From: Lytechinus pictus | Lineage: Eukaryota | NCBI RefSeq assembly: GCF_037042905.1 | Contig: NC_087250.1 | Location: 7,070,001 to 7,134,000 of the forward strand | Reading direction: 5' to 3' | Length of the DNA stretch: 64,000 bases | In this document: positions 1 to 55,000 of the stretch, in pieces | Layout: each line of letters starts with the position of its first letter | Numbering within the stretch: position 1 is the first letter of the stretch | Program-made: the position numbers and the translations under genes | Notes under the pieces: model-generated | What the model saw: only the letters and a program-made list of their open reading frames with translations | The model's database searches: none | What the model was told of the DNA's origin: nothing

Positions 1-158
1 TCATCATCACCATTGTCATTATCATCATCATCCTCCTCATTATCACCAATATCATCATCATCATCAAAACCATCAATAACACCATCTTTCTCTTCCCCCA
101 TCACCATCACAGTGCATACCTCATAATCCCAATAGATGGTCTATATGTTAGATCATAC

Positions 159-331
159 CTCATAATCCCAATAGAAGGCCTATACGTAAGTCTCCATAGA
201 TATGCTGTCCTGTGCTGCCACCCCTGCATCAGGGGGTCATGCCACATCAGTTCTACTTCATTTGATGTGGTGTACGAGTGCCACAGAGCGTTGGCTAACG
301 TGGTCCCTGGGCCTGTTGTAGAGTGCACCTT
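159..331 (-). CDS. Exon 35 (most 3' found): TSP C-terminal domain
   Basis: [19 protein letters not shown]...LMWHDP...GW...[16 protein letters not shown]; no stop, continues past window. Confidence 0.9.
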
Positions 332-1703: not shown

Positions 1704-1743
<40 letters not shown>

Positions 1744-16700: not shown

Positions 16701-16744
16701 GGCAGGTGTAGTTGAAACATAAGAAATAACTTTGAGGGATGATG

Positions 16745-16780
<36 letters not shown>

Positions 16781-24562: not shown

Positions 24563-24594
<32 letters not shown>

Positions 24595-26272: not shown

Positions 26273-26304
<32 letters not shown>

Positions 26305-26359
26305 CCTCCTACTACTATTACTACTACTACTACTACTACTACGTCTACTATTACTACTT

Positions 26360-26427
<68 letters not shown>

Positions 26428-26488
26428 GCTGCTACTACTAATACATGTATTGCTTCTACTACCACTTCTTCTACTACTTATACTACTA

Positions 26489-26533
<45 letters not shown>

Positions 26534-26535
26534 TG

Positions 26536-26567
<32 letters not shown>

Positions 26568-29500: not shown

Positions 29501-32500
29501 CATAGAATTCATCCTGCAATAAGGTACCCATTCACCTCACCTGGGTCGAGTGCAGCAAAGTGGGGATAAATTTCTTTCTGAAGGAAAATAGGCCTAGGAT
29601 GCGAACCCATGTATTGCTTAGGTTACCCTACCAAAGAACAGATATCTCATGATATTTTGTTACATGGTCTTTAAAAGGTCCTGGTTTATTACATTCTTTA
29701 GTTCTTCAGTGATTTTATTCATCAATTTAAAGTAAATATAACATGCATATATCTTCAAGAAACCCCCCATCTCAAACTTCATTTTTGTAGCAGATCCTAC
29801 GGTGACACTGCATTTGCTCCTGTGAAATTTTCGCCTGTCTTAATATCTAGACTAAGAACTAAGATGCATTGCAAAAAGTCCTTCTCCTACAGTGCCCCCA
29901 TTCTTTGAAATTCCCTCCCCAGTACTCTCCGATCACAAAATAATCCTGGACTTTTCAAATCCCAACTTAAAACATTTCTCTTTAATGAAGCATTCAATTG
30001 GATCATTCCTTATACTTACGCCATATGTAATTGATATTGATGCTGTGCTATTGTAAGTAATTTATTATATTGTATAATTATATTTCTGAAAAGCGCATTG
30101 AGAGTCCTAACAAGTCTGAAATGCACTATATAAGAACTTCGTTATTATTATCATTATCTCAGAGGGCATAGGGTTAGAATTAGGATTGCAACACTTTTTG
30201 GTTTAGAATTATGCAAAGATAAGGATCAGGGTTTATTTAGTTAAGGATGTTAAGTTTTATGTTTGCCTTAACGTGCCCATTTTCAATCAGAGCAACTGAA
30301 GCCAGAGAAAATTTCATGGAACCGATCCTACTAACTCTCATCTAAAAGTAGCCATACTCACGTCTAAACCTTCTTTCCGGAGTACAGCCAAGCAGCTCTA
30401 GTCTGAGAGCAATCTCATCATTCCACGACTGAGGATATATTCTGATATAACGAGCATAGACCTCATCAAAGATGTTCCTTTTCACTGTGTCCTGGTCAGA
30501 GTTCCCTGTAAAAGTCTGGAGGAGATAGATGTTAATTATTCAATAAAATAATCTTTGTTACATATATCTTGTAGTATGGTTCTAGGCTTCTGACTGGTTA
30601 GAGTTGCAGTCATGGAATGCACTACTGACTACCAGGTGATATAGCAAAAACTATTGACTTGATATAATTATAGTACCTGCATCTACAATAGGTGTGACAG
30701 TCACTATGACAAATGCTGCATGTAGCAAGTAGATCTAGTCAGACGAGTTATAGCTAGTTTAGCTAGTTGTTGGTACCTCTTGTGAGTGCATCTAAATCTA
30801 AGCATAGTCAAAAAAAGTTATAGCCATTCTTCAAATGAGATTTTTCAGACTTTTATTACATTCAATGCCATAATCAAGTCCAAAATTGACCATTCGATGT
30901 TGTGTCAGCACAGCACCAACAGCACCATACATGAAATGAATCAGGTCCTGGGGCAAACCTGTCTATACAGTGCATCCCACAAAAAACGAAACCGAGATTT
31001 ATCGATGATTTATCATAACTTAATCACAAATACAATAGACAAATGACCTACCATTGTAAAGCTTAGAATCTCCTCTTTCATCTGAAATTACTAAGATTAT
31101 TTCTCATTCACGCATGAGTGAGCAAAAACAATTTGAAGAGGGGATACCAAAATGTCATTTGGCGGGCTGTATCTGGGTTTCATAAAGAAAACCACATTTT
31201 TAGAAAGTTCAATATCTGCTCTTTAATTTGATACCTCAATTACAGAAAATGGTCAAGAAATAACAAAGTTCTGGTTATTTGAAATAAGGCTTGAATTTCA
31301 ATAATTTCATAAAATTAAGAGATTCTACAGGCTAGCGTTCAAACTCACTCGACACTCCGTTTTTTGACGATCAGCCATGCATTAAGTCTTTTGTTAACCA
31401 TGCGAAAGTTTCTGTGGGAAACCGGTGAAAACACGTTTATTTAATGAAATTATGGAAATACAAGCATTGTTTCGAGGGAACATAACTTTTTTACTTCCTG
31501 ACCATTTTTGTGATTAAGGTATCAAATAAAAGAGCAGATATTGAACTTTTTAGGCATGTGATTTTTTTTTTTTTATTCAGATACCCCCGCCAAATGAGTT
31601 TTTGGTATCCTTTCTTCAAATTGTTTTTGCTCACTCATGCGTGAATGGGGAATAATCTAAGTAATATCAGATGAAAGAGGAGATTCTAAGCTTTACATTG
31701 GTAGGTCATTTGTCTATTGTATTTGTGATTAAGTTATGATAAATCATCGCTTCATCTCTGTTTAGTGAGCTATAAATTATATGATTTGGCTAATCTTTGT
31801 AATCTTAGATCAATTATGAAGCTAAGGAAGGTAATCTTAATCGTATATCCAACACAAACACCATAATCAGCACATACCTTGACATCCCCCTATGTATCAA
31901 CAGACAAACCAAGGAAAAGATGAAAAGTAAGAGAGGGGACACATAATAACCCTGCTAGACCTCCACAATTAATAACCGGCGGCCAAACGTTGTTTGTAAG
32001 TTATGAATGACTACACACGACTGGAGATCCTTCCTTGTGCTGATTGATATATCACTATGCCTTTTCACCTAAGAACATGTTCCAGTTGTGTGGAAAGTCA
32101 TGCATATCCTTACATACATCTTCATAAAATACCATCCAGGACTGAATGTCTATCTCTAAGACTTTTGATAACATACCTTTGCAAAAAAAAAAAAAAAAAA
32201 AAAAAACATACCTTTGCACTGAGGAATAAAAGAGGGGACATACAATAACCCTGCTAGACCCCCACAATTACCGCCCGGCCCGACTGGCACTCTCTAAACC
32301 TTTTAATATCATACCTTTGTACTGCCATCCTCCATGATGTAAGACCAGCTGGAGGTATCGTTGCTAACGGCAACCTCAAATGTCTCCACCCAGTATTCTA
32401 AGTCATTGCTTCCTTGGGTTAATATGCCTGAGAAGATTGTTATTTCTTCCATATCAATCTGAATCCATTGATTTGTATCTGATGATGCAGGTACCCAACC

Positions 32501-35500
32501 TAAGGAATGAATAATAAAGCATATTTTGTTGCGCGGCTGGCAGAAGGGCGTTAATGCGCACGAGCCCTGGAAAGTACCCTTTTACAACACGTGATTATGT
32601 CATTGTAGGCAATTACAGCTATACTACATGTAAATGAAAGAACTATCAAAACTATGTCACACAGCACTGAAAATCAAAAATCAATTTTTCTGTAAAAAAA
32701 TCGCGCTAACGCCCTTCTGCCAGCCATGCGACGATTTATTACCAGTGGTGTAATGAAGAAAGTAATGATATTACTTGCATGCGTGGATTTATGTGGGGGG
32801 CGTCTTGGTCTAGTGGTTAAGACTCATCTTTCAATCTGAAGGACATGGGTTCGATTCCAAGCCATGGCGGTTTTCCTTCAGCAAGGAATTTACCCACATT
32901 GTGCTGCACTCAACCCAGGTGAGGTAAATGGGTACTGGCAGGAAGTAATTCCTGAAAAAGCTGTGAGCACTAGAATCGGTAGACTAGCTTAGCCGGGGTA
33001 ATACAGGAGCGCCTTGAGCACCTAGCAAGGAGTATAAGGGTGCTATACAAATCCTATATTATATATTCATTAATTTATTTGGTTTTAAAGTTGTGCCTTG
33101 CTTTATCAGGATTAAACCACTCATCGACAGGTAAACTTTCATGATTGTGGAAAAAGGTTTTATCGATATCACCCCTATGACATCATCTTTCTGCAGCTAC
33201 TGTATCAATTCTAAACACCACCATCACCACCACAAACAATCATTAGAGTATCACCTGATAAAAGGGGTATACATGTACCATGACTTGGACTTGAACCTTG
33301 CATTATCAGGATAAAATCTATTATCGTCATTATCATCATAACCGTCCAATGCCCAGCAATCTTCAACATCACCATCCTCACCACCAAACAATCGCAATTA
33401 CCTGATCAAAATGGTATATCAGGATTTGATCATCACTTGAGCCTCATCCAATCTGGATGGTAATAATGATCATTAGGCCCTACAAGCTATTCACTATACC
33501 AATCACCAACATAACTGTCATTTACATCACTATCATTAACATCACCACAAACTCCGCTAAAATCAATGTTACACTGAACCTTAATGGTGACATACCTGAT
33601 CCAGCTGGGATATCAGAATCTGGTTTGAGGTCGAGCCTTGCCCTGTCAGGATCGTATTTGTTATTGGTGTTGCTCGAAGAGGAGAGCTGAGCTTCTTGAA
33701 TCACACCGTTGGCCATACCTCGGGCGTCCCGACAATCTAGGAGACAGAAAAATATTGAAACATTTACACAGGGAGAATGGGTGGGTGTTTCATAAGGCTG
33801 TTCATAAGTGACTAATGACTTGATGCACAACTGGGGACACCTTCTTATTCCTGGGTAGCCATCCTAGCCCCAGAAAAAACCCAACATGGAGGATAGAAGA
33901 GAGGGAAGAGGATCAGTGATAAATCCCTGAAAGCACTTTCAATAAAGTTGTTCATAAGTTAAGCATGACTTTAAGAAAGGACTGGTATTTGTTCTTGAGC
34001 TTTACCATCTGACCAAGCATCACAGCCACATCTTTCCCACAGAAATCCTGCACGTTTTAATCCCTTAACATCACTGTTTCATCATAGACAAGACTATTGG
34101 GAATGTGGAAAACTGCTGTAAAAGATGCTGTGTCTTTATGAGAGTTAACTTCACCAACATTTACAGTTTTGCCTCAGATCAACAGATCAATATTGCCCTC
34201 ATCCTTAGCTCGAGCGATATGAGACAAATTAAAACAACAATCAGATACTTCTCCCTCAAGTCTTGTCAATATGACTTACCACATTCAATTAGGTAATACT
34301 TGGAAACCCCTAGGAAGTCACCAGTATAGGTAGATATTTTCAGCTATTTAACACTCATGATGCCTTACCATATTCAAAGAGGTAATACTTGGGCACCCTT
34401 AGGAAGAGACCACCTGTGGTTTCATTGGTGTAGATGATAGTTTCTATCGGTGCTCCTAATACATCATAGAGGCAGGTCTCACTGATAGTCAGGTTGACAT
34501 TAGCAACGTCCCCTCGGACAGGGACACCACCATCTACTACTGCGACGATCATCTCAACTTGGTAGAAAGAGGAGTTCCCAATGCGTCTAGGAAGAGGAAA
34601 AAATACATTCATTAGGGTAAATGCACTATGAATATGCATGCAACAATATAAGTTTATTGTACATGGATCAAGATGTAGAAGGATCTTGATGGATCGAGGC
34701 ACATCAAGTAATATTACATGCATTTTGCATTTGATTATATAATTTTGGAGAAATATTGAATAGAGAAGTACTTTTCAAATAAGACATGTAGACATGTAGA
34801 ACACTCAAGCATCTAAATTTCAAATTATCTATGTCTTTCCCTTTATTGTCAAAGTATCAGATATAATTATAAGCTATTAAGATGACAATACAAGAATAAA
34901 AGTAGGTCACAGAATACAAATAAATGGAGTGCCTCTGGCAGTCTCGTCTGCATTACGGTACTCAACATAGCAATGCTGACTTTGAAATAAGTACGATGAA
35001 TGGTTATTTACAAAAAGCCATTCACAAGATAATGAAATTTTTAGTTTATTGACCTTAAATGACCTTTGACATTGATCATGTGACCTGAAACTCGCTGTTA
35101 GGAAAGCATCTCGCATAGCTATGCAGGCAAGAGAAAAAAAATGGTACCTTCTGCTTTGTCAGGCGCTCTATGAGAATTAGAACATGTTATGTTGTGCAGG
35201 GCCCACTGGAAGAACAGCTGATAGCTGAAGTGGCTTTCCAGGGAAATACAAGTTATCATTATTATTATCACTGGGTCACGCTCGACTCTATACTCACTCT
35301 TCTGATAGTGTATTGGAGAGATATGTAAGTTCCGCATTAATCCCAGAGTCTTGATCGGTGGCATTAACGACAGCTAACTCAGCGTTGTTCAGGACAGGGA
35401 GAGGGAAGAACTCAAAGCTGTCATTGCCATTGAAGATTGGACAGTTATCATTGATATCATCGACATAGATCTGAAAGAAAGAAGATTTGCATACAACAAA

Positions 35501-38500
35501 GGATTGAAAGTACATTTGTGTGTCATTCATAAATTAGCACATTCATGATTCATTGAAATTATTATTTTTGTTTGTAAATGACTATACAGTTTTGTTGATT
35601 ATGTAATATGTGACTTTCAGGGTTTGACTTCTTCGCCAGACTTGATTGATGGCTAGTCTGCTGTGCAAACCCTTCACTCGAGTTCAGAGTCTGAATGAGC
35701 AACCTAATCATGTCTTGTGTACTGAAGGCCCTCTCACTCATGCCATCGAGTTTTGTGCTAGTCTTTGCGTGGAGACACACTTGTTGATCAAAGTTTCAAT
35801 CAGGGTCTGTGCCTGCAGATAAGTTCATGGCCAGGATGAATTCTAGCTTACCCCCCCCCCCCATCCCCGGCTGTGAGATGGGTCTACATGACCCAGTCTC
35901 TATTCCACTACAAGCAGATTACAGTGAATTCTGCCCCTCCCTATCCCTGGCTGTTCGATGGGGGTCCAAATAACCCAGCTCCATTCAACTATAAGTGGAT
36001 TAGAGTGGATTCTGTCCCACGTACCTAGCTTTGAGATGGCACCAAATAACCCAGGTGGGTATTTTATGGAGCTTTTCGAAAGTTACCACCACCTTTAAGA
36101 ATGACTGGTGATCCCATCTGGCGGTAAATGATACACAGTAGATTTCCAATGGTGCTGATGTATTTCCAAAGAAAGGATCACCAGCCAATGTAAAGTCGCT
36201 CATAACTAACAAATAGCTTTATGAAACACACACCTCCTCTATTAGATTCAATACACTTAATAATCCTCACTGAGTTTCAGCATCCACCCTCTTCATGTTC
36301 CACATTCACTCTCACTGGCTATGGGGTTGAATGAAGCATAGTGAAATCGATATCATGATAGACTGGGAGATCATTTGCGTAAGCGATTCCAATCCATACC
36401 CTACATGTAGATATTCAACATTTTTCTTAAGTTGTGCTTATTTTGTCTACAACTGGTGAACGTATGATTTTAAGTAAACTAAAATCTTTGTGAAACACCT
36501 CTCCCCAGCTGAAAGCTTACCTGAACGGCTATTTCTCCTGATCGAGGCGGAGATGAGTTATTATCTTCCACGCTGATGATGAGGAGGTAATCGTAGGCGA
36601 CCTCGTAGTCGACTTCATTCTCAATGGTGAGGAGAACCTGATCGGTGTAGATGTCGTACTCCTGGATGCCAGCTTCATCAGGCTCAGGAACTAGGTGAGA
36701 ATAAATATGGATTTTATTCAACTTTGTGAAAAGATGTATTTGAGTGGGCTCTCAATGATGTCACCATGAGCTTTGTAACTATTATTTTTCTAAAGACATC
36801 TCTACTCCAATATCATGATCACCATCATCACAGTCACCCTTATTCCCATGATCATCGAGAGCATTATCTCCTTCATCACTATCACCATCATTATCATCAT
36901 CACTATCATCATCATCACCATCATCACCACCATCACCACCATCATCATCATCACACTCATCACCATCAACATCACCCTCATCAATATCATTACCATCATT
37001 ATCACAACCATAATCAAAATCTTTAATGTCACAATCATTGCAATTATCGCCATCATCATCAACATTACCATCAATATTTCTATCGCAATCAACATCACCA
37101 CTACCACCATTATGGACACTATAAGCATCATCATAATAATTGCATCCACAGAAATCATTGTGATCTATTTGGATCATAATCGTTATGATCCAAATGATTC
37201 AAATGAAAAAAAGGAGTCCTGGGCCCCGTCTTACAAAGAGTAACGATTGATCTGATCAACCTCATGTATATGGAAATCCATCAACGTCATATTTTTTTCT
37301 TCAGAAAATTAGCACAACATCCTTTGTAAACAAAGAGGAACACGCTGAATTGTCAATAAAACTATGAATGTATGAATATACATCATATGTAGAAAATATT
37401 TTTAACAACCAAGCGTTCTAGATGTTTACGTTGCTGGCTTTCCATAGTTGTGGTCGATTGGATCAATCGCAACTCTTTGTAAGACAGGGCCCTGATCACG
37501 TGGTGCAAATTTTTCGTCTCGATGTCAGGTGTGTCTCCCTCACTTTTCTTTTTTTTTAAATCAAGACATGTTTAGCATTCTTATATTTAAACATTGAGAA
37601 ACTACATGATTTGAAAAACTATATTACTCTTACACCTATACCCCACCTCACAAATACACATGGGCTATTTTTTTAATCTTAACTCCTGGAAAAAAAAGGA
37701 GTAGTTGATAGGCCTGCAAGAGGTTGATAATAAAAATGTGACATTGAAAATAATAGTATGATCGTGTTTTCCAACAATTCTTACTTTCGCTGATGTGGTT
37801 TACGGTACACCATGTGAAGTGTTATAGAAACAGTGGATAGAAGAAGAGAAGAAATGGATAGGCGAGAAAGTGGAGATTTGAGAGTAGAGTATTCTTTCTT
37901 GAAAGTAGTCCTGAAAAGGACTGTAAACCAGGAAAGATTCACACTCCTGAAGACGGACAGTCAACCTGCCCGAAACGTCGAGTCTCTCTACTACTCATCA
38001 TCTCTACTCGCCGACTCAAGCCAGCATCTCCTCATTAGCTCTACTACTCAAGCTGTTCTCAACTCATCAATCTTTCCTGGTTTACAGTCCTTTTCAGGAC
38101 TACTTTCAAGAAAGAATACTCTACTTTCTCGCCTATCCATTTCTTCTCTTCTTCTATCCACTGTTTCTATAACACTTCACAAGGTGTACCGTAAACCACA
38201 TCAGCCATTGTACATACCACCATGCAAACCTTCAAACAAATTCTTACTTTGTACAGGTGTGAATGCACAGGTGACAAAGGATGTTCCATTAATGGTGTAG
38301 GTAGGGGTAGGTTCCACCGTGGAGGGGATGATCCCAGCATTAATATTCTCTGTTGTGTAGTTCTTAATCGTGAAATGCCTCGCCTCATTACCTGCAGTTC
38401 AAATGAATACATGACTCAATTTAATATCCGCATCCTGCAAAATTCACCAGTGGGGGGGGGGGTGTTTCACAAAGATTTCAGTATGGATTCAGTCACACTT

Positions 38501-39949
38501 AAATGCCGACGCGTACACCAAATGCAACGCTCCATCTTGTTGATCAATACGCAGTAGTGCGCATCCTCTTGGCATGATCTGACCAATGCGGTTATGCTTT
38601 TTATACTGTGCGCAACTAGTTATTTAAGTGCGACTCTGAGTAATACTTAAATCTTTGTGAAACACCCCCAAGATAGTTCTCAGTAATAGCCAAAATAGTA
38701 AATTGGTCTTCAAAAAGCCCAAAATGAATAATTAGCTTATCTGAAGTAGTATTTCTCCTTTATGCTGTACAAAATTCCAAATAGTAAAGTTGATTAGAAG
38801 ACAAGATACAAGCCTTTGCTTGACACAAGTTTTTTGTGGACTGCTTGGAAGTTTCTATAAAATTGCAGTGTGCACATCTCATGCTTGAGTGAACATAATC
38901 TTCAAACATTGTTTCTCCGTATTTTCTGAAGCTCTCACTTCGAGTCCTCTGCATTCAATCAAGTATTTCAGTTGGTAATTGTTGATCAATTTCGACAATT
39001 TATATATCATTTCAAAGCTACGGCTGTGCGTTTTCAAAATAAATTAAAATCTTAAAATTCATTTTGGGCGACTTATTGTTGGTCTGGATTGGCTGGTCAC
39101 ATTTAGACCTAGGGCCCAATGCAACTGAAAAAAAATCAAGAGCAAGTCCTGAATACCTGCATATGATTGGCTCAAAATCATGTCACAACTTATTTTTAGA
39201 GTTGAGTTTGATTGCATACTTTTCAATGCACAGGGTCCCATTTCACACGAAAGATCAAAACGGAAATATTATAGTGCGAACCAGGGAAGTAGAGAAAAAG
39301 TCGGCTCCCGAAAAAGTCAACAATGTTGTTAACTCTTTGTGCGCTGGACCATGAACCCATCTGTACTGAATTATTTTCAGGGAGGGAAACAATGCATTGT
39401 TTGTTGAGTGTGAAATGTGAAGTTCGCACGGCACCGAGTGTGCATTGGTGCGAAGTACGCGTGGAAAGGGTTAATACCCAATTTAATGTAATTATCCAAA
39501 AGATCACTATTAATATGAGTATATTTAGTGGCAGTTTGTCCCATGAAAACAATATAAATATCTCACCACTGACAATGGAAACATTATAATTTGGACCAGT
39601 AGAGAAATAGTCGGCTACCGAGAGAGTCTGGACGATGCCGTCTACACTCAAACCTTCGTTGATATGAACGGAATGATCGATGATTCTCTCATCCTCTTCC
39701 ATGACATTAAAACGCTTGAGCTCTAAGAAGAAATCTGATTTGCACATCTGCCTTTCGGTGTGGAAGATATCAAACCTATAGGCATCGCCAACCTATGGAT
39801 AATAAAACAATATATAGATAAAAATATATATACATATGAAATAAGAACAGATGATAAAGTAGTCTGAAGCACATATCCACCTTTCAGTGTGAAAGATATC
39901 AAATCTATAGCCATCGACAACCTATGGATAAATAAATAAATTAATAAAT

Positions 39950-39987
<38 letters not shown>

Positions 39988-40007
39988 AAATAAATAAATT
40001 AATAAAT

Positions 40008-40056
<49 letters not shown>

Positions 40057-43000
40057 CATCACCAACTTCTGGATATTCAAAAGAAGTAATATGAACGAAG
40101 ATGATACCGATGTATGCAAGGAAAGGCATAAACGTACAGAAACTTTAAAATGCCATCAACTTAATGAGATGGCGATAAATTTTATCTTTCCATGTTGACT
40201 TATTTGCAACAGGGGGTGTAAACTGATTTACTACAGCTAGAAATGATCCAACACTTGTAAAATTACAACATATATTTTTGGCTGAATGCATAATTTTTGC
40301 AATTCATTTGCAATAAATTTGAAATCGATTACAAATATTTGCCGGCAATATTCTCCCTGTTTAGTCAAAGCTATGAAATATTTCTTACCACAAGATCAAG
40401 TGTCACAGCCTCTGCAGGAACACTCCCGGTAATAACACATTCTCCATCTACAATACTGCCCTCTTCTGGTGTGATTGTACCACCTCCTAAATTAAAAAAC
40501 AAACAACCTTTCTGTTATGTTTACATTAATCAAATACAATTTAGATGCAAAAAACCTTTTCTCGTTCATGATCATACTCTATTCAAGGTAAGATGGGAGA
40601 CTAGTCCTACTTGAGTAAGATTCACATCGTTTGATACTGGTTATAACCTCTTTTTCTGACTGAAAAATGTGTAAAAATAAAGATGCACAGTGTACTCCAG
40701 TAGGAGCTAAAATGCACACTATAAGGATGTACAGTTGACTCAAGGAGTTATTTGAACTCAATAAATATTAATGTTCACTCTACAAGAAGTTATAATGCAC
40801 TCTATAGCAGTCAGTTGGCAAGCCCCTGTGTTAATGAGCAAGATTTATCCAAGTCCTCTCGTGGCTGAATTCATGTCCCTGCAAAATCTCGTGAATTGTG
40901 AGACTTTCTTTCTCAAAGAATTTAACCACTTTCTCCTTGAGTAATATTGATTATTTTGTACCATGGGCAAGAGTAAATGATACTCTTTTATATTGGTCAT
41001 TTCTTTTGAATGAAATATTTTGATAAATAAGTGAAATTTTTAACCTGAAAAGATGCATCACACAGAATTTTCTTCCTCTGTTTTCACTTGCAAATTGTGC
41101 AACATTTTGTGTTGTAGGCACCAACATTATTTATATCATCAGAAAGCTCAAACTCTATACTTTCTTACAATGTCACTCTTGATATGTGGCATCTTTTAGA
41201 TGGGTCAGCAGCCAGCTTTTTCCATCAAGATGCAAGACAAGATTTCTGAAATTTCTGAGTAACATAAAATCCAGAGTTCTGATTGGCTGAATAATGTTTT
41301 CAACACAACAGGCGCGAGTAATTTGAAGAGATTACCACATGGTGAGTGTGACCTTGCAGAGGCCCAGTGAGGGGAACATTGGAATTTGCGTGGGTATGTG
41401 GTCTCTATGACCAATCAGAGCGCAGTATTCTTGTTTTTTAGCTGCTAAATGTACTTGGCCTATGAAAAGCTTGCTGCTGACCCATCTAAAATACATCTTC
41501 TTATAAAAATTATATGATATTAAAGCTTAGATATTCAGCTTTATCATGATTAAAAAATCATTTGTGCTCAAACAGAAATTAAGTGTGAAAACAACAACTT
41601 TTGTTGCATGAAAAAATTATTTTGTTTCATGTTTTAGATCAAAAGTTTTTCCTATATTACAACATCCTTTTAAAAATCCAAACACATGACCTGAAAGAAT
41701 GATTCTCCTTCTTTACAAAGATACCAAAAACATGAAATTTGGTCAATATTTAGAGCAGCAATGGCCGAATAAAAAGAGGTGTTTTGGTTCGCACTAAGCT
41801 CATTAACTATGCAAAAACCCTCTAGTCATGAATATCACTTGGATAAAAGAAGCTACTTTTTCAGGGCTTGCCAACTGACTGATAGGCATTACAGTCCACT
41901 CCAGAGTGTTATAATGCACTCTATAAGTATTACAGCTCACTCAAAAAGGGGTTAAAATGCACTGTATGGGTGTACAGGAATTCATTCTGAGAGGAGTGTG
42001 ATTAGGAAGTAGAAGAGCTCTTTTGCTTTTAAAGAGTAGTAGGGCAATCCCTCAAACAATCAAACTTCATTCATGAAACCCAATTTTTCTCCATTCTTAC
42101 TTCTTTCCATGAACTTACTACTTATCCTGCTTAATCCAAGATAATTTAAGAGCATTAAGACCTTGTTGTATGCGACAGCAACTTACAAGAAAATTGTGTT
42201 TAACCCTCAAAATACCCTCTAATTTTGCATTTAAGACAGAAGGGTAATTGAAGCCAAAGTATACGCATACTGCACACAGTTTGTGGAATAGCGTGCCCAA
42301 CATGCGTAAAGATCGCTTCTCGGAGGACCATTGTGTCCTCAGATATGCTTAAACTAGTTTGATAATGAGGCAAAGCAGTGACTCTTGAAAACAACATCGC
42401 AAGGTGGTTTTCCAAACACGTTTGGAAGGTTTGGAAGATCGATTCCATGACCGCTTTGAGCATTCCAATTACGCGTTAAACTGTCTACTTTCCACTAAAC
42501 TACGTGTAGTTGTAGGACTTTAATGAGAATGGGGTCTCCATCACTTTCTTAACTCTTAATGTGACATTCACTGTAACCAGCGAGTGCCACTTTTTTCAAA
42601 GATTCTATATTTAAATGTTTTATTTACCAAAAAAAGAAAATCACTCATGAGACAATAATGTTAAACCTCTTGACCATAAGCTGAACTGAACAATGGAATC
42701 ACTCATGCATGCAATGCACTCCTCAAAATGCAATAGGCATAACAATAGCCGTGTGACCATTGCCCAAAAATGTGTTCGTGGCAGTCCAGTGGATGCACAG
42801 ATATGTGTTCATGGCACGTTAAGGGTTAATGTCACTTCCTCAGCAGATGAACTACACTGCCTTGGACTTTTTCTTTACTCTGGCTGAACATTAGGCTCTG
42901 GTGTTTAGTAGTGAAAGTCAAATCAAGGTTTTTTTTTGTTTACAAAACATCCTTAAATTGAAAGTCAGTGGGGCATTGGCTCTCATAGGGAATGGATAAT

Positions 43001-46000
43001 CATTTGCTGACCCCAGACTTAGTGAAATGCATTGGAAATACCTGTTACAGTACATCTCTGCAGGAAAGCAAACTCGGTAGACTAAGCCTAATAAACCTCA
43101 GGTAACAGTCAGGCCACAGAAAGTGGTATATTGACTTAACCGGATTGTATTTTCCAAGGAGGCGCGATAGCTCAGTCGGTAGAGCGGGGGACTCGTATTC
43201 CGGTGACCCGGGTTCGATTCCCACTTGGTGCGCTGGTGCCCTTTGGTAAGGCATTAATCCTCAGTACCAGGTCCTTCGGAGAGGACCTTAAGCCGTCGGT
43301 CCTCTGGTTGCTTGCTTACAAGCATTCATGCTTTCTTAGCAATCATGTAAAAAATCACCACCAATACCAATGGCATTACATAACGTCTGCCAGTAATAAA
43401 TCTAACCATGGTTTGTCCATATGTGATTGATATCCGAATGGTGTCACATTAACAATGACAGCTGACGGACCACTGACTCTAAAACTTGATGGCAGAGTAG
43501 GAAGAGGCAACTTACCATCAGCATTTGCTAAACTAACTTTCTTGCATTTAGTGACTGATTGGTATTCTCTCTGAGATTGTAGAACAAGTATCTTATTGAC
43601 GTAAACAAAAATCTCTTCGCCTCCTCCCACCGTAATCTCCTCACTGCCATTAAAATGTATCCCGGTTCGGACTGCACTTGTAAATCTGAAAGGAGAGGGC
43701 AGAATAAATATTATAACTTTCATTTTAAAACAGGTATTACTCTTAACCCTAACTAGGCCGGGCTTTTTTGGCTGTTCTGTGGCCGGGGGGGGGGGGGGTT
43801 GATTCAACCCCCGCCTGAGATCTCGGCCGCCGAATATTGAGATTTTATTTTATATGAATTAATTATGCTCATTTATGCATAAATCATACTTTTTGCTAAA
43901 ATTCACCAAAATTTCCTAGAATGCTAATTTTTGGCAAAAATATTCTTTGTAGCATTCTTAACAATCGCAATTGAAAAAAAAATCGATTTGGAAATCAATT
44001 TCTAATGTATTTTATTGTTTTATGAATTTCTTATGTATTTTCTTTGTTTTTCAACCTTTTGTTTTTCTTAGTTTTTTTCACCAGATTTATTGCACAACCT
44101 TTTTGAAGCATAATTATGCTAAAATCAATTGATTTCAGCAGTTTAAAGCAAAAATAATCATATCTTTATGAATAAGATGAGAAAACTCAATTTGCATTGA
44201 CTTTGTACACAAAATCACGTTTTGGAACAATTTTTGGTCTGACATGCACTTATGAAATGTTGCGTAATTTCGGAACCGCGTACCCAGGCGTCACAAATTT
44301 GGTCTCAAAAGATGCGCGAGACTTGAAAGTATAAACTCTGTGAGTGGCGCGGTAAAAAAAATGTGCACCGCGAAATGATCGCAGAAAATGTTGAGGGGGG
44401 GTTGATTCAACCCCCCCCCCCCCCGGTCAGTTTAGGGTTAAGATTATTGACAATACAACAAAACTAAGTATCCATTTATGTGTTCTTCTTCCATTTCCCT
44501 CTGTCTTTCCCTTTTACTTTTCCTTTTCTTTTTTCTTTTTCCTAATCTCTCTCTCCTCCTTCTTTTATTTCTTCTTCCAGTAGTAAGAAAAAAATTTGAA
44601 GGAGCACCATTTGAGTAGAGTTCGTTATTGGGATCCTCTATTCCTCTGAACGCCAGGGTAGTAGCAATTCCAATTTTTTAATATCTTTTGATCTGATGTG
44701 GCCAGGGCTTGAACTCCCGACCTCCAAGTTGGGAGACAGATGCTCTACCAACTCTACTTACAACCGTGATAGTTACCAAATCGTTTCTATTGTACTCAAC
44801 CATCTCGTTTAAAGTCATTACCCCCTCTGTTGTTATTTTTGGTTTTCTTACTGTAATCCTTCTGTTCTGTACTCTTTGTTACCCGTTATTTACTTTGTTG
44901 TTATTACGATTTTATTTGTATGGTTTTGTTCTATTTTGTTTGTTTTAATACATAAAAGCCTGATGAAGGCCCTACTGGCCCAAAGCTAGCATTAAATGAG
45001 ATACCTTGACAGCTACAGTACGTCTAGCGTCAATGCCTGGATTATTTTATGCCTATATACATATTTGGGGGGTACTTTTCACGAAGGACTGCCTAAAGCT
45101 GCAATATTTGATAAGCTTTACATTGCAATGAACTGGGATTTTCCAGGGATAAACTGAGCATTTCGGGGGCGAAACCACCTTGAGCCCCCATGTTTCTGCA
45201 ATACAAACTTACCCAAAGTTATGAAGAACATATGAACAATCTCTCTGGTCTTCAGCTGTATACCCAAGTCCATCCAAAGGAAAATAAGAAGGGGACCAGT
45301 ATCTGGAGAAAGAATATCAGTGGATTAGTCTTCAGACTTTGAAACAGAGGGTCATGGGTTCAAATCCCAGCCATGGCATAATTTCCTTCAGCGAGAAATT
45401 GATCCACATTATGCTGCACTCAACCCAGGTGAGGAAAAAGGGTAGGCCTACCCGATAGGAATTAATTCCTTGAAATGCATATGCATTGCAATTACACCTG
45501 CCAAGCTAAAGCCGGGGAAATGATATTCAAGTCCTTTGTTTGGATCATAAATTTATCACAGAATAATAATAATAATAGTAATATGGGCATATTTACCCAG
45601 GGAAGCCACTTCAGTTCTGAAAACTGTTCTACCAGCGGGCCCTGCTATTGTTATATCAACAAATCAACAATATCAACAAAAAGAGCTAATTGACCACCCA
45701 ATCAAATAAATACAGTCCGTCCTACAAAAAAGAAACCCATCTTGAGAGATTCAAATTCCTTGCTATTGACCAATTTACTGTGGTCTAAGTCTCATGAAAG
45801 CCACTGAATATAGCAATAATTCTCATAATTCACATAAAGTCCTACAGTAATGGCATCAATGTGCAATAATAGACAACCGGTATAACCTAGCATATTTCAC
45901 AGTTTTCGTGATGTAATATTGATTCGACATGATGAACTCCAACAAGCAGTTCATCATCTTAAACAAGACACAGTGTAGGAATATATTGTGAATTAGTAAC

Positions 46001-49000
46001 TTTGCCAAGTAAAGGGTACTCTGCATAAGTGATTTTTCTTAGGACAGACATCTATTTGACTAAGGCAAAATTTGACTAATAGAGGATGAAAATATTGCAT
46101 GTTTGACATATTCTGGGCTCCGTAACACAAAGGTTTGCAATCAATCGCTAAATATCAATGACCAATCAAGATCATTGTTGTATGCGCGCTCTGTTTAAAA
46201 TACTGACCGGGAACCAATCAGTGTGGTTCTTTCATATTTGAAATTAATGACAAACCTTTGTGTTACAGAGCCATGGTCTCAAATAATGCTTTGAGTTGGG
46301 CGATTATTCATCGTGAGAAAGGCTGACATACACAGAGTTTACTGTATAATACCAAAAACTGTACCTATTTATAGGGTCATATATAGACGAGGTATTCAAC
46401 CAAGGGATAACAATGTTGGTCTCAAAGACATAATTGTTATCAACATTCCTGAACCAATCAGAGAATGTATCGCTGGTCGGGTCATCTGATTCCCTCAACC
46501 AGGCAGGAAAGGGACTATCAACATAGGTGGGTGATATCTTCAAAGTCTTGGTGGATGAATCAAAATCATCCTCAGTGGCACTGTAGATAGAATGAAAAAT
46601 AAAGTTGGTGAGATGATGTATCCCTGAGGGACACCGCATGTAATTCCTTTTAACCCAGACTATCATTATAGATTTGTGATGTCTTCAACATCTTGTTAAA
46701 AGAATTGAAATAATCTTCAGTGGCAGTTTACACTGCATGATACACGTCATGTTTAGATTGATCAAAAAAGAGAGGTCCTAAAAAGGAGCCTTGAGGGATA
46801 CTTCATGTTACTGCAAGTGTTAAATTCAGATTAGCAAGATAGGTAGGTGATCCCTTCAATGTCTAGGTAGATAAATGAAAATCATCTTCCGCCCTTCCTT
46901 AGAAAAATAATGAGAGTGAACAAGGCATTATACAAACCTGAAATCATAATACAGGATCTGAAGTGAAATGTCCAATCCCCCAGACTCTGTCAGGTTTGTG
47001 GATGCTGGGGAGGAAATAAAATATCATCAAGAAAATCAGATACAAATTTCAAAAGGGTTCTCAAAGTCCAAGGAGCTCTTACAAACAGTAGATCTTTTGC
47101 CTTATTAGGACCATGTGCTTCAGGTCAAATGCCAGTTGTGGTTTCCCATGACAGTAGTGTTTACTGCAACTACTTCCATTAATCTTTAATGATACACATA
47201 CCCAATCATAAGAAATATAATGTGAATTTTGATTTAAATGAAGATGTTGATTTTATCTTAGAAAGAGTTACAATTGATCAGATCAACCTCAACTATTATA
47301 GAAATCCATCAATGTCATAATTTCTTCTACAGGAAATTCACACAATGTACTTTGTGAACAAAGATAAGCACAATGATTTGTTCAGAAAACAATGAATGTG
47401 TGAGTTCATCATATATAGAAAGTATTTTGAATAAACATGCATTTTCGATGTTGATGTTGCTGGCTTTCCATAAATGTGGTTGATTGAATCCATTGCAATT
47501 TTTTGTAAAACGAGGCCCAGTACTCCAACATATTGTGACATGAAAAAAATTGAACTTTATCATTCATTTTGCTGACACTGAACCATTTGCAAGAAACTTC
47601 CAATCAATAGCAAGGAGATTGGGTTCTTCAAATTTATCATACATCTTACAAGTAAAAGACCTTTAAATATGACAACATAATCCCACAGCGCCCTCCTTCA
47701 GAGGATATAGGAATACATGTAAACAGAGTTGTCAGAGATGCGCTAGCTGCAGATAACCAACACATGCAAGGCAATGGCTTCAGCCTCTAAGATGGCGGCG
47801 CAATGACATCACTGTATAAGGTCTAATGCCAATTTGTGATTGAATGCTGATATGCTTTCTGCACCGAGGAGGAATAGATTACCTGCTAAAATTGATCTTA
47901 TCAATACAGTTATTGTTAAATTGCAATTAAAATTTCACATGAAATTGCAACTACCAGAATGTTTTTTGCAACACCTCCTTAGACTATACCAATATGGAAG
48001 GATTAACTTACCAACATTTTCCAGTGTTGTTATAGGAATACTCTGCCCCTCCACACTCGTATTACCCCCGTATGTGAGTCTGAGTGTACACGTGTAGTCT
48101 GTCCCATACTGCACCCCATCACCAGATTTAAATAGGATACTAAGATCGGTGGTGTTACCGACCAATCCAGTCACAGCAGGTGCATTATCACTGGTGCAGT
48201 TGATCACATAAAACCTGGGATAGGAAAATAAACATTTTGTGAGTCTAGTAGTCTGTCCTATAGGATTTAAATAGGATACTAAGGACAGTGACAGTAGGGC
48301 CATTGACACTGGTGCAGTTGATCACATAAGACCTGGGGTAGGAAAATAAGATTATATGATGCTATTAGTCTGTCCTACACTGAACCCAATTATTTGATTT
48401 ACATAGGAAACTAAGATCAGTGACAGTGGATGCATTGGCACATAAGACTTACAATATGTAAGTAACATTGTGTGAGTCTAGTAGTCTGTCCTATACTGAA
48501 CTCCATTATTATTAGATTTTATAGAGGATACTAAGATCAGTGACAGTGGATGTATTAACACATACATGTAAGACCAATGGTATATAAGTATCATTGTGTG
48601 AGTCTAGTCGTCTGTCCTATACCGAAACCCATTATCAGATTTAAATAGGGTACTAAGAACAGTGACAGTGGATGCATTAACACATAAGACCTATGGTATA
48701 TACAGTGTAAGTAACATTGTGTGAGTCGAGTAGTCTGTCCTATACTGAACCCCATTATCATATTTAAATAGGATACCTAGATCAGTGATAGTGGATGTAT
48801 TATGGGGTCGTCGTGGTCTAGTGGTTCTGACTCTCGCCTTTCAAACAGAGGGTCGTGAGTTCGAATCTTAGCCATGGTGTGTTTTCCTTCAGGAAGAAAT
48901 TTATCCACACCGTGCTGCACTCTACCCAGGTGAGGTAAATGGATACCGGCAGGAAGTAATTCCTCCAAAAGCTGTGCGCATCAGAATCGGAAGACTAGCT

Positions 49001-52000
49001 TAGCCGGGTAATATAGGAGCACCTTGAGCACCTAGCAAGGTGGATACGTGCGCTATACAGATCTTATATTATTATTTATTTATTTATTTAACACATAAGA
49101 CCTATGGTATAAATAACAATGCGTGAGTCTATTAGTCCATCCTAAACTGAAACCCATTACCAGATTTAAATAGGATACTAAGATCAGTGTTAGTGGATGC
49201 ACTGACACATAAGACCTACAGTATCTAAGCGACATTGCGTGAGTCTAGTAGTATGTCTTATACTGAGCCCCATTATCAGATTTTAATAAGAAAGATCAGT
49301 AACAGTGGATATATTGCCAGTGTAATTGATCACATAACACTTAGGGTATGAAAATAAGATTTTGTGAGTCTAGTAGTATGTCTTATACTGATTTTAATAA
49401 GAAAGATCAGTAACAGTGGATATATTGCCAGTGTAATTGATCACATAACACTTAGGGTATGAAAATAAGATTTTGTGAGTCTAGTAGTATGTCTTATACT
49501 GAGCCCCATTATCAGATTTAAATAAGAAAGATCAGTAACAGTGGATATTTTGCCAGTGTAATTGATCACATAACACTTAGGGTATGAAAATAAGATTTTG
49601 TGAGTCTAGTAGTATGTCTTATACTGAGCCCCATTATCAGATTTAAATAAGAAAGATCAGTAACAGTGGATATATTGCCAGTGTAATTGATCACATAACA
49701 CTTAGGGTATGAAAATAAGATTTTGTGAGTCCAGTAGTCTGTCCAAAACTGAACCTCATTATCAGATTTAAATAGGATACTAAGATAAGTGACAGTGGAT
49801 GCATTGCCGGTGTAAAAGATCACAGAAGACCTAAGAAAATAAGATTTGGTGAGTTTTGCAGTCTGACCTATATTGAACCCCATTATCAGATTTACATAAG
49901 ACATGAAAATCAGTGACAATGGATGAATTGCAGGTAACAGATCACAGAGGGTAAGAAAACAAGATTTGGTGAGTCCTATATTAAAATGTAGTGGGTGCAT
50001 TGTCATTGTAATTGATTGCAAAAGACCAAAGGTACGAAAATAAGATGTGAGTCTAGCAATTTGTTTGAAACTGCAACCCATTATCAGATTAAAATAGGAT
50101 ACTCCGATTAGTGACAGTGCATAAGTGCATTATCAATACGTGCACTGATGGGAACATAAGTTTCAAATTTGTAAGTTGGGGAAAGAGGTCTGGATCCAAT
50201 AATCATTTCAAAATTTCCAATGACCTTTGTATTACATGACCTTCATGATAACTGAAGGTCATTGTCAATAATGATAAACAATTAGCACTGATGGGTGAAG
50301 GTCATTGTCAATGGCACTCACCAATATATGCTATCGGGGTACACTGTGTGTACCCCGATGTGTACTGATGGGAACACAAGTTTCATATTTGTACGTTGGG
50401 AGAGAGGTCTGGATCCAACAATCTTTTTTTTTCAAATTTCATATGACCTTTGTATTGCATGACCTTCATGATAACTGAAGGTCATTGTCAATGATGATAA
50501 ACAATTTGCACCGCTGGGATCATCAGTTCCCACGGGTAAGTAGGGAAAATATGTCTTGTTCCATCAATTTAACGATCATTTCGAATTTCCTGCGACCTTG
50601 GTATTAGATGACCTTCATGATAACTGAAGGTCATTGTCAATGACAATCAACAATTTGCACTGATGAGTGAAGGTCAATTGTCAATGGCACTTACCAATAT
50701 GTGCTATTGGGGTACATTGTCTCATTTGTGTAAGGAGGGTATAAGACATCTGGTTCAAACCATTCGACCAAGATCTGCTCAAACGCTGGTGCCGTCACAT
50801 TGATATCAGTCGGTGCTGCAAGAAAAACATAGCAAGAAGTGTAGGGAAGGTCATCATGGTTAATACACATAATCTACAAGGAATTTTAGAGTAAAGTATC
50901 ATGTATGTGTTCCCTTCAATATTTAGATGCTTATTTGCATAATATGTTAATTACACTTCAGATATTAAGCTGATTTATTAATGTATTGGCCATTCTTAGT
51001 GATCACATCATATTGATCTAGACTGAAATGTTGTCATAACTGTTTTTATGAGAAAAATCAAAATTTCTGGATTTTTTCCAAATAAGGATGCTCATTTATA
51101 TGCAAATGAGGTAGATTCATTTACGATTTTTCATTTTAAAAATAAATAAATTTGTAAAACTTATGCTTTCTGCACTTGATTTCCAATATTTGGATTGTTT
51201 TCCTTATTTGTAACTTATTATTGCTAATATGCATAAAATGCAAATTTCATGATTTTCATATATGCTTGTATATTTAAGGACTTTTAATATGGTGTTTAGG
51301 AAACCTTCCTGTAAGGTATTGCCATATTCCAATTTCAATAGATACATGTAATCTACTTACAATTTTTGAGGGATATATCACCAGTGTGTTTTCTTGAATA
51401 TTTACAACGTGTAAAGGCGACCGCACACCTTACGATTGGTCTGCGACCCGATTTCAGAATAAAATGTAGTAGAATTTTATGCTTATATTGAGACTTGGAA
51501 TATCTTACTGTGTAGTGTTCTAAATCATCATACGAATACCTATGTTCAAATCTGTGACTATGCTATCTTCCTTCTTAGAATAAAAGCAAATTTAATATCT
51601 AGTCGTAATGACGTCATAGCAGTCATACAATCGGCTACGATTTGAAACTAATTTGGCCTTTACTCCAAAATAAAGGCTTGCAATCTTTCAAAATGCTATA
51701 TGTGTATTCTTTCGATTGATTTTAACCTCAAATAAAATTATATGTTCCAGTCACATTTTCAGAAAATGAGCAAAATGTGATTTGTTCCAAAATCGGATCG
51801 CCAACAGTCGTAAGGTGTGCGGTGGCCTTAAGAGATATGGTATTACAAGATCATCAGGACCCTGCACCAGAAATGTTATCAATCGCTAAATGAAGTGGCC
51901 TATCACGACCATCGTTGCATGCCCATTTTGCTCAGTAGACTGACTAGGAACCAATCAAATTTGTGTCATGGGGCAATGGACTTGCAAAAGCATTCTTAAA

Positions 52001-55000
52001 TTTTATTAACAACCCATCAAAGTTGGAAACCAATCAGCTGCATAATGCATAAAAAGGAAATCGAATAAGAGGTGATGCATTCGCAGGAGACATTTTTTTT
52101 TTCTTACATGTAAAAAGCAATAAAACTTTTAAAAGCTTTCTTGAGTTACACTCAAATACATTCAGCTCTGTAATCTAAACTCGGATCGATTTTAAACACT
52201 GGTCAAAAGTTTTGGTTTGACTATGGATAGCAAAACGTGACACAAATATCTTACAGAAGGCCTATAAGTTCAATTGATCAGCTCTATTGACCATCAAATC
52301 ACCAAAAACTGTCTGGATGTCAACTAAAATAGTTTTCTTGACCAATAAACGCTAAGTGGAAACAGCAAAGTAAACATAATATTAACAAAATTCTGACATG
52401 TACATGTATAGCTTATACCAGTGTGTTGGTAAAGCGTCCATCTCACAACTGGGAGGTCGGGAGTTCAAACCCCGGCAGCGTTAAACCAAAAGACGTTAAA
52501 AGATGAGAGTTGCTGCTATCCTAGTAGTTGGCATTCAACGATGAAAGGGACAGAGCCTCATCGATCTGGCGCTGCACAGCAGCTGCCGGGCTCACAATCA
52601 ATTGGGTAAAGCAAATTTTCAGAGTGTTTCATTTCATGTCTATTTCAAGCAACAATGGATTTTCACTTTCACATAATTTCAGAACAGAGCTAGACCATGG
52701 CTAAAGTTTGCTTGTTAGTTTTCATTACTACATTCATCATTCATACATATGTGTTTACATATGCAATATACAAAAATAATCCTTGATATAAGCAATATAG
52801 TCATAATGCATAATAAACACAAACTAAAAAAGTAGCAGCGACTTCAGAATAAAGGCTTCAGAGTTTAACTGTATGAATTGAGATAAATGGAGTGATTTGT
52901 TGCACATGTACCTAAAACACAACTTAGATGATCCTGAGGAATTCAAAATAGATATACTTACTGCAGTAGAAGAGGTAGTTTTCTTGATTAAGGAAGTAGT
53001 TGAGAGACGAAGACTGCGACGATGCAAAGAGAGTACCAGTCAAACTATCAGGTGAAGAACATTCTCCTCCCGTCACCTGGGATAGGACGTCGTAGACCGA
53101 GAACCAGATGTTACAGCTGCAAGCAAGGTTGTTATTTGCAAGGTTCCTGTATAAAGGTGATGTTCAAAGATAGTACCAAGTGCAATGATCTTTCATCTAT
53201 ATAATTACATATTGCATCAATCTGGATGTTATAGACTCAGAACCATATATTACAGCTGCAAGCAAGGTTGTTACTTGCTAGATTCCGGTACAAAGGAAAT
53301 ATTCAAGTACACAGTTCAATGAACTTTGAGCAATAATAGTGCTCAGTGCAATGCACTTTCATCCATAATAGTATGCATTGCATCAAACTGGATGTCATAT
53401 ACTGAGGACCGGATGTTACAGCTGCAAGCAAGAATGTTAGTTGCTACTAAGATTCCTGTGTAAGAGATTTTCAAAAATAGAACACAGTGCCATGCACATT
53501 CACCCATGATAGTACGAAGTGCACGTTTTCTTCTACAGTTAGTATGATCAAAAATACAATCAGGTGATCAGGTTTTAACAAATCGATATTTATGGTCAGT
53601 CAGATTCATATTTTCTGGAATAGAAAGAAGGTGGCTTTTCAAGTATGTACATGTAGTGATAGTGAATAGGTTGATTAGTTGGTGCGCTAGCAAAAGATCA
53701 AAGGGGAATCATCTTTACAGTCATGAAAGTAGAGGGAAATTCCCCTCTGCAATTCATCAACTATCATCAGTTTCATCACCTTCATCAAAACTACCTCCAT
53801 CACCATCACCACCATCGTCTTCATCACTATCATCATCACCATCACCACTATCATCGCCACCACCATCATCATCCTCACCGGCACCATCATCATCTTCATC
53901 TTCATCATCACCACTATCATCATCATCATCCCCATCACGACTATTGCCACCATTATCATCATCATTATCCACATCCTAAGTCATACTTACACCGATGATA
54001 CACTCTCGAGCAGACTGAAAGCATTCTCCCCAAGTGTCCTGATCTGATTATTGGATAAGTCTCTGTGAAATAAAAACATAATATGAAACATGAAATATAA
54101 TATTAAACTCACATGAAAAGATGCACAAGTCCTCATAATTTCATCACAATAAGTTCATTTGTGATTCCTATCCTTGCTTTTACTATGCAAGCTCTCATCC
54201 TGATGCTCCCTCAGGCACACAAGCAGTAGACATACACATGTGCAGAGACAAACCAAGTGGGTGTTTCATAAAGCTTTTCCTATGCACGACTTTACGCACA
54301 AATGGAATCTGTTCTTAGGTGCTGACTGACTTGCTGACTAAGGTACATAGGACAGTGTGTCCCTTCGCTCTCATACTGATAATCCTATTCCATTCAGTTC
54401 TACCCTGGGCTAGGTCTACAGCAGCATCCAGTAGAGGGAGTCCCACATCACTTCTGGAAGGGGGACGTCCTGGCGGTCTCCTCATTTCAAAATCATTTCT
54501 GTATGCCTGGACAGGAAAGCTATTTTGTGGCATATGACAAATGTGCCCAAAACACCTCAGGTGTATTTTGTAGCTTCCTCACCTATCGTATTTTTATATG
54601 TACCGGTAATCTCCTGCTAATGTCTGCATCTCATCCTAATCTCCTTCTAATGTCCGCGGACTTAAGTACCAGTTCAGGGATATATCATTGAGCACAAGAA
54701 AGGGTCGCCAGTTATGCATGTAGTCATTGTGAACAGGTTTATGAAACACCCAACAGTACCTATCAAAATATCCTCATTTATCAATGACTCACCTTAGATA
54801 TCAAGCTGGTACAATTACAAGATTATTCTATATGATTTAAATGATTTCAAAATATGATTGAAGAACAAAAGAAAAATTCCAACTTACATCGTTGTAAGGT
54901 CTTCTAAAGCAGTGAAGGCAGGAAAGTGTTCGATGCGATTGTTGCTCAGATAGCTGCAATGTAGAAGATAGAAATGAGGGAAGGAGAACATATACGTTAT

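Follow-up and report, generated by a model that had tools for sequence, protein, structure and literature searches.

Why should a sea urchin gene for an extracellular matrix protein contain the motifs of a fibro-slime module, a domain type of Fibrobacter, of myxobacterial-type proteins, of Dictyostelium Psi-type proteins and of Difflugia? The motifs lie on the minus strand of a 64,000-nucleotide stretch of the Lytechinus pictus genome (assembly GCF_037042905.1, contig NC_087250.1, positions 7,070,001 to 7,134,000; hereafter the window, whose own coordinates are used throughout). A sequence-only reading had placed them within 39700..47004, assigned them to a fibro-slime/PA14 domain split by five introns and hence not a contaminant, left ancient retention and horizontal acquisition as alternatives, and proposed profile searches, structure prediction and a domain phylogeny as checks. 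We have followed up this reading and conclude that six exons of a sea urchin mega-thrombospondin (mega-TSP) gene very probably encode a PA14 superfamily domain, a divergent one that belongs to the fibro-slime branch. The homology is genuine and adds to a known family; it reveals neither a new kind of system nor a gene transfer. What is new is a modest point, i.e., that the module is constant and conserved in mega-thrombospondins and forms a distinct animal subfamily.

Six exons with fibro-slime motifs

All quoted motifs are indeed found in minus-strand reading frames inside the indicated range (stop-to-stop frames 39223-47023). ILYYDF belongs to the open reading frame (ORF) at 46928-47023, FSDWFR to 46304-46684, YFPLDGLG and HNFG to 45209-45316, FTS with an 11-letter peptide to 43376-43849, and a closing 16-letter peptide to 39223-39792; a 24-letter run is followed by the FTS of the next exon, likewise in minus-strand frames. 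Exon borders were read off the sequence and then verified by script, which gave an AG acceptor and a GT donor for six of six exons and thus the five introns of the sequence-only reading. Spliced together, exons a to f make 867 nt in a single, stop-free open frame of 288 amino acids, and the domain within it is an extracellular, mostly beta-stranded unit of about 235 residues.

The domain starts in exon a (46938..47004), whose ILYYDF motif corresponds to the RDF start of fibro-slime modules and aligns with our alignment of the mega-TSP form of the domain (alignment A1). Exon b (46365..46580) contributes FSDWFR and the N-terminal extension of the fibro-slime module, exon c (45213..45302, 90 nt) a 12-letter peptide with the next motifs, and exon d (43516..43685) the core PA14 strands from FTS through a 16-letter peptide, including an altered GDDD position. 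An additional exon e (40389..40486, 98 nt) had not been quoted before; it bridges the 11-letter peptide of the preceding exon and GDAYRF, and it encodes a cysteine-containing insertion peculiar to the mega-TSP form and missing from bona fide fibro-slime proteins. With a 21-letter peptide, exon f (39567..39792) closes the domain at about 39714 and continues as a linker toward the next domain.

Exon b is 90% identical to a 281-residue RefSeq fragment of Strongylocentrotus purpuratus (XP_011663473.1; P0001), which served as the query for finding relatives. P0001 tracks exons a to d and turns into unrelated sequence from about eight residues before the exon d donor; it is apparently an incomplete gene model of the S. 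purpuratus mega-TSP that reads through this donor. The S. purpuratus composite in the text sections of the published mega-TSP survey (PMC6526912) was assembled from two other accessions and not from XP_011663473.1. The present result also corrects fragmentary gene models such as XP_011663473.1.

Family scans of single exons were nearly empty because an individual exon offers too little length. Pfam gave no match for any of seven exon queries and no PF07691 (PA14) for the six exons or P0001 at E<=10, and NCBIfam gave one weak match, of TIGR02148 (Fibro_Slime) to exon d (14.1 bits, E 0.048). P0001 itself matched TIGR02148 at 21.7 bits (E 2.1e-4) over profile positions 2-50 of 90. A word-indexed search yielded no relatives longer than P0001, while an exhaustive phmmer search returned 256 proteins at E<=1e-3, with 39 of them at E<=1e-10. 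The long top matches were mega-thrombospondins and the remaining ones PA14/fibro-slime proteins, with direct matches to TIGR02148-positive proteins reaching E 5.2e-24. Among the proteins outside the mega-TSP group, TIGR02148 was found in all 18 that were scanned for it (63.9-423 bits) and Pfam PA14 at E<=1e-3 in 32 of 34 (31 above the gathering score; P0086 and P0096 had none). All 19 scanned mega-TSP-type proteins matched TIGR02148 as well (22.8-58.7 bits, E 5.7e-16 to 9.6e-5).

Alignment A1 matched an alignment of 32 fibro-slime proteins from the phmmer search (A2; five of its members, the rows of the P0051, P0067, P0073, P0096 and P0120 type, are in the set scoring at least 63.9 bits by TIGR02148) with an hhalign probability of 99.95% (E 1.3e-37) over 194 columns at 28% identity. 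Across these roughly 200 residues the blocks shared with fibro-slime modules occur in the same order, i.e., an RDF..HpDFe-like start, F.qWYRd, FFPlDG.GfG, HNF.FT, a G...WVFIN strand and Y.lD.F.AERh..SnF. Moreover, a profile built from 69 domain copies of non-animal-type fibro-slime proteins, without any animal mega-TSP sequence, scored the joined window domain at 114.8 bits over residues 46-241. The best of 1000 shuffled versions reached 5.9 bits (725 scored at all), and we therefore rejected chance similarity. It is the sequence evidence that carries the claim of homology to fibro-slime domains, and we regard it as decisive.

The predicted fold agrees with this assignment. We ran AlphaFold2 on A1 with the domain of the crown-of-thorns starfish Acanthaster planci as first row, which is 55-60% identical to the window domain, and obtained a model that is nearly all beta-strand (pLDDT 79.4, pTM 0.83). 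Foldseek placed Epa1A, Marinomonas MpPA14, Flo5 and Flo1 on top among the entries of the Protein Data Bank (E 4.8e-4 to 2e-3). By VIA-align the best matches were Cea1A (Z 9.5; 151 residues aligned, rmsd 4.2), the PA14 domain of an RTX adhesin (8.8), RsgI (8.8) and KpFlo2 (8.5). Judged by their titles, the 50 matches listed comprise 34 PA14 or Flo/Epa/Cea adhesin domains, two RsgI structures, nine GH3/GH31 enzymes and, at the bottom, five beta-glucuronidases. Z values to PA14 and Flo/Epa/Cea domains of 7.0-9.5 over 115-151 residues fit a PA14-type beta-sandwich. Foldseek, the comparison proposed at the outset, put the same families first, though with weak scores. We treat the fold as corroborating and not as decisive because Z values below 8 are common according to the tool's own warning. 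The ESM Atlas gave only leads to bacterial PA14 clusters, at 0.85, a value below the level that this tool trusts.

Could the resemblance be one of fold only, i.e., a generic beta-sandwich lectin such as an L-type lectin or a galactose-binding-like domain without true PA14/fibro-slime homology? Foldseek does list ERGIC-53, VIP36 and legume lectins at E values near 2e-3, sugar-binding domains of beta-glucuronidases reach Z 6.0-6.5, and Pfam PA14 stays under its threshold. However, such a generic likeness would hardly produce the ordered motif blocks over the 194 hhalign columns or phmmer matches of the strength found here. In addition, the best 45 VIA-align rows are all PA14, Flo/Epa/Cea, RsgI or GH3/GH31 entries with beta-glucuronidases only below them, and the GH3/GH31 matches cover 115-134 residues confined to stretches of about 120-200 residues in chains of 791-949. 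We consider a mere likeness of fold extremely unlikely.

Several observations nevertheless weigh against assigning these exons to the fibro-slime branch. TIGR02148 scores fall below the curated 45-bit cut-off in 17 of the 19 mega-TSP-type proteins, the exceptions being P0008 of Argopecten (58.7) and P0163 of Acropora (49.7), and the matches mostly span profile positions 2-42 of 90 only. PF07691 never reaches its 24-bit gathering score in mega-TSP-type proteins (0/7 at E<=1e-3; 1/8 at E<=0.1, with 16.4 bits). In these relatives, the profile check proposed by the sequence-only reading thus gave matches to the fibro-slime profile, mostly under its cut-off, and none at threshold for Pfam PA14. The 69-copy profile is not fully independent because its copies were found via similarity to the urchin fragment, whereas the TIGR02148 scores of the proteins behind it are. 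On the structural side, the model is that of an ortholog and not of the window sequence, the Foldseek scores are marginal (best E 4.8e-4; TM 0.26-0.43) with L-type lectins in the same list, and Z 7-9.5 is a range that VIA-align itself rates as middling. Sequence searches of solved structures found no match for A1 beyond chance (DNA polymerase zeta, E 0.36) and, with the limit relaxed to E 10, still none for A2, the profile of bona fide fibro-slime proteins. The likeness to PA14 lectins of solved structure (the yeast adhesins Cea1/Flo/Epa, Marinomonas MpPA14, clostridial RsgI and PA14 inserts in GH3/GH31 enzymes) is thus one of predicted fold, without a sequence match to the solved chains. A practical consequence is that the curated thresholds of both Pfam PA14 and TIGR02148 miss the animal subfamily.

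Host gene and transcripts

The sequence-only reading had taken the host for an animal matrix protein, and it is more precisely a mega-thrombospondin (formerly TSP-DD). By tblastn, residues 936-2578 of the A. planci mega-TSP (P0002) are collinear with the window from 53154 down to 158 on the minus strand, so that the whole window lies inside one gene. ORF translations give the order as the C-terminal part of a leucine-rich repeat (LRR/LRRCT) region, an Ig/FN3-like exon, the fibro-slime domain, cadherin-like exons and a discoidin domain, followed by cysteine-rich ephrin-receptor-like exons, EGF, thrombospondin type 3 repeats and the thrombospondin C-terminal domain. The fibro-slime domain therefore sits centrally, after the Ig/FN3-like exon and before the cadherin-like and discoidin domains, and the remaining parts of the host gene spread over 158..53154 according to tblastn with P0002, ORF translations and the Pfam architecture of orthologs (LRR, Cadherin, F5_F8_type_C, Ephrin_rec_like, EGF, TSP_3, TSP_C and Laminin_G_3). 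The part of the gene inside the window has the features that define a mega-thrombospondin at the gene level, while the gene start, the N-terminal LRR region and the last ConA-like domain fall outside it. In the orthologs, the domain is part of one polypeptide of 2500-2950 residues.

Table 1 of Shoemark et al. 2019 (PMC6526912) names ApMT of A. planci (2889 residues), Saccoglossus XP_006823110 and Branchiostoma floridae XP_002595072 as mega-TSPs. The published ApMT, SkMT and BfMT2 as well as the Ciona thrombospondin-DD cluster are among our domain-carrying matches. For bilaterian mega-TSPs, the text sections of that paper (as distinct from its figure 1 and supplements) list FNIII, discoidin and cysteine-rich domains.

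Evidence for splicing comes from four sequencing runs placed on 39500-47100, among them X1 (contigs) and X21 and X22 (stranded raw RNA). The first X1 contig record (2135 nt, minus strand) carries exon b at its positions 78-293, exon d at 384-554 and exon f at 654-879; these pieces cover 46365-46580, 43515-43685 and 39565-39790 of the window with 0 differences each. The gaps between the pieces are 90 and 98 nt, i.e., the lengths of exons c and e. Given the exact exon matches and these gap lengths, the contig represents the spliced form and stems from the window's own species. Beyond that, the junction of exons c and d is spanned by five reads of X22, which connect 43684 with 45213 and have one letter in between. 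In the bins of X21 and X22 that hold exons a, b, e and f, the depth is 0.6-6 and falls exclusively into the first_mate_on+ column (5.98/0, 2.68/0 and 4.83/0 against the other column in exon-holding bins of X21), a pattern that fits RNA from the minus strand. On the other side of the balance, the RNA nature of the X1 contigs is only guessed, and the placement covers 39500-47100 and thus not the thrombospondin exons. Contamination was rejected on the strength of the canonical introns and the spliced contig, as the sequence-only reading had argued from the introns.

Next to exon f lies a pseudo-exon f' (39796..39921, minus strand), a tandem copy of part of exon f that comprises the acceptor and the first ca. 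65 nt. Most of its positions are identical to that part of exon f, its frame stays open (with a 15-letter peptide) until a stop at the exon f acceptor, and it adjoins a TA-rich 58-bp repeat (39929-40041). The X1 contig runs directly from exon e to exon f and skips it.

This degenerate duplicate, the separate S. purpuratus RefSeq model of 281 residues and the low read depth over the exons (about 1-6) are what would be expected if the exons were a decaying or separately transcribed remnant outside a working mega-TSP. However, the joined frame is free of stops and has kept its 55-60% identity to the A. planci domain, the spliced contig contains the exons in order without the duplicate, orthologs have the domain inside a single polypeptide, and the exons on either side encode the adjoining parts of the same protein in their proper order across the window. 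A remnant is therefore very unlikely, and we continue to regard the domain as part of the mega-TSP.

The introns contain stretches (40770-42039, 43056-44579, 45088-45849 and 46104-46357) at which the depth of the RNA runs climbs into the tens and up to thousands on both strands and where loose ends and strand-switch joints abound; these are probably dispersed repeats. Similar peptide frames (28 letters) are found at 43140-43430 on the plus strand and at 61027-60809 on the minus strand.

Distribution among animals and age

The mega-TSP form of the domain was found in echinoderms (S. purpuratus, Lytechinus pictus, Diadema antillarum and, with two genes, A. planci) and in other deuterostomes (Saccoglossus, three Branchiostoma species and Ciona). 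Further carriers are the molluscs Pecten, Argopecten and Sinanodonta, the annelid Owenia (two genes), the orthonectid Intoshia and the cnidarians Acropora, Stylophora, Porites and Exaiptasia. One of the matches, P0111, is an LRR plus fibro-slime fragment of mega-TSP type. The protein of Argopecten irradians (P0008) contains the full domain at residues 698-961 and then its C-terminal third again at 992-1071, which could be a partial duplication or a gene-model error.

We computed an unrooted maximum-likelihood tree (quick search, 217 columns) from 19 mega-TSP rows and 55 rows of other proteins, with one copy per non-mega-TSP protein and leaving out P0027, a fragmentary gene model. A branch with SH-aLRT 96 separates all 19 mega-TSP rows from the 55 rows of other proteins, which is the outcome of the phylogeny check. 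Echinoderms adjoin the hemichordate and the corals stand together, and P0111 and Intoshia have very long branches. The nearest non-animal relatives include proteins with cysteine-rich repeats of myxobacterial type, a protein from a Myxococcales metagenome-assembled genome, the testate amoeba Difflugia and Dictyostelium.

That these nearest relatives are bacterial or amoebal, and that the tree does not settle the sister group of the animal clade, could be taken to favor a recent horizontal transfer by which the sea urchin lineage obtained the domain from a bacterial or amoebal donor. Such an event would leave the domain confined to that lineage, yet it occupies the same position in Cnidaria, Mollusca, Annelida, Orthonectida, Hemichordata, Cephalochordata, Urochordata and other echinoderms. 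Its 19 rows group together with the echinoderms beside the hemichordate, and five spliceosomal introns split it in the urchin gene. Because the domain is found at the same place across cnidarians and bilaterians and forms one group in the tree, it is old in animals and a recent transfer is excluded; we give this explanation almost no chance. The question that the sequence-only reading had left open is thus decided as far as recent transfer is concerned. By the sequences compared, the domain was part of mega-TSPs before the split of cnidarians and bilaterians and is at least as old as their common ancestor. Its origin in animals would be either inheritance from an ancestor shared with Amoebozoa or a very early gain from bacteria. 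Taken jointly, the identity of the domain and its ancient vertical descent are conclusions in which we have high confidence.

The text sections of PMC6526912 name PA14 only in Hydra, whereas we find the fibro-slime type in 19 of 19 scanned proteins from corals to Ciona. The abstract of the same paper reports siRNA experiments on the mega-TSP of Hydra. Public names exist for fragments, i.e., "protein psiD-like" for one of Lytechinus and "protein psiC" for one of Exaiptasia in RefSeq, and UniRef calls the latter "PA14 domain-containing protein". By title and abstract, the matches listed in a literature search for "fibro-slime" concerned Fibrobacter, other fibre- or biopolymer-degrading microbes and gut microbiomes and no animal protein, and a search for "PA14 domain" with Dictyostelium and metazoa found only unrelated work.

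Taking these observations together, we are inclined to think that a fibro-slime type PA14 module is an ancestral and constant part of mega-thrombospondins since the cnidarian-bilaterian ancestor, that it forms an animal subfamily of its own with an altered calcium-binding GDDD motif, an added disulfide-bonded hairpin and probably a ligand other than that of microbial fibro-slime proteins, and that published domain maps have missed it outside Hydra. If this is true, the module would belong to a small number of matrix domains shared specifically by animals, Amoebozoa and a few bacterial groups, and sponges, ctenophores and the unicellular relatives of animals would allow a test of where this portion of the animal matrix came from.

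Altered motifs, possible ligands and neighboring repeats

Mega-thrombospondins belong to the most ancient matrix proteins of animals. Little is understood of their central region, and the PA14/fibro-slime module that occurs there regularly across many phyla provides a concrete candidate for a binding domain. PA14 lectins bind sugars via a calcium site with a DcisD-N signature (an Asp-cis-Asp plus Asn), and one clostridial module no longer bound calcium or pectin once the two aspartates were lost (PMC6852018). Fibrobacter fibro-slime proteins have been implicated in cellulose adhesion (PMC4668043).

The animal form keeps the core strands and most signature blocks, but differs from the typical fibro-slime module in several respects. 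GDDD is present in 58 of 69 typical fibro-slime copies and in none of 16 mega-TSP-type sequences, which have GG(D/E)x instead (GGEE in the window). The DlGGvH columns are not conserved and are followed by the insertion of about 29 residues encoded by exon e, and four conserved cysteines have been gained. The setting differs as well, with a giant matrix protein on the animal side and bacterial surface or amoebal cysteine-rich secreted proteins on the other. When the following strand is aligned with the Epa1/Flo5 sequences and the Pfam consensus, the position that we take to be the first aspartate of the calcium motif would be a glycine in all 16 mega-TSP sequences, and the second is presumably a glutamate in this urchin.

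The complete absence of GDDD weakens any simple transfer of the sugar-binding function to the animal domain, and a ligand role is in any case argued by analogy to other PA14/fibro-slime proteins. We propose that the domain may act as a ligand-binding module of the matrix protein, with a glycan or another matrix component as the most likely partner. By that same analogy, we see the chances that it binds a glycan or matrix ligand as about even. With GDDD changed, DlGGvH lost and the insertion and cysteines gained, any such binding would be expected to work without a classical Asp-cis-Asp calcium site.

The window contains several repeat arrays in addition to the exons described above. At 48362-49901, within the intron that precedes the exon at 48213-48007, tandem repeats with a period of 123-125 bp occur in about 3.6 and 4 copies. 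Their minus-strand translations (peptides of 16 and 17 letters) resemble the peptide of the neighboring Ig/FN3-like exon, a part of which the array seems to repeat in degenerate form. Another intron of the same gene harbors a satellite at 57693-60331 with a 180-bp period and about 14 copies (89-92% matches). Finally, a long trinucleotide-type low-complexity stretch at 26029-26535 on the minus strand, which reads as poly-Ser or poly-Val depending on the frame, lies between cysteine-rich exons and coincides with a strong GC skew at 20-28 kb.

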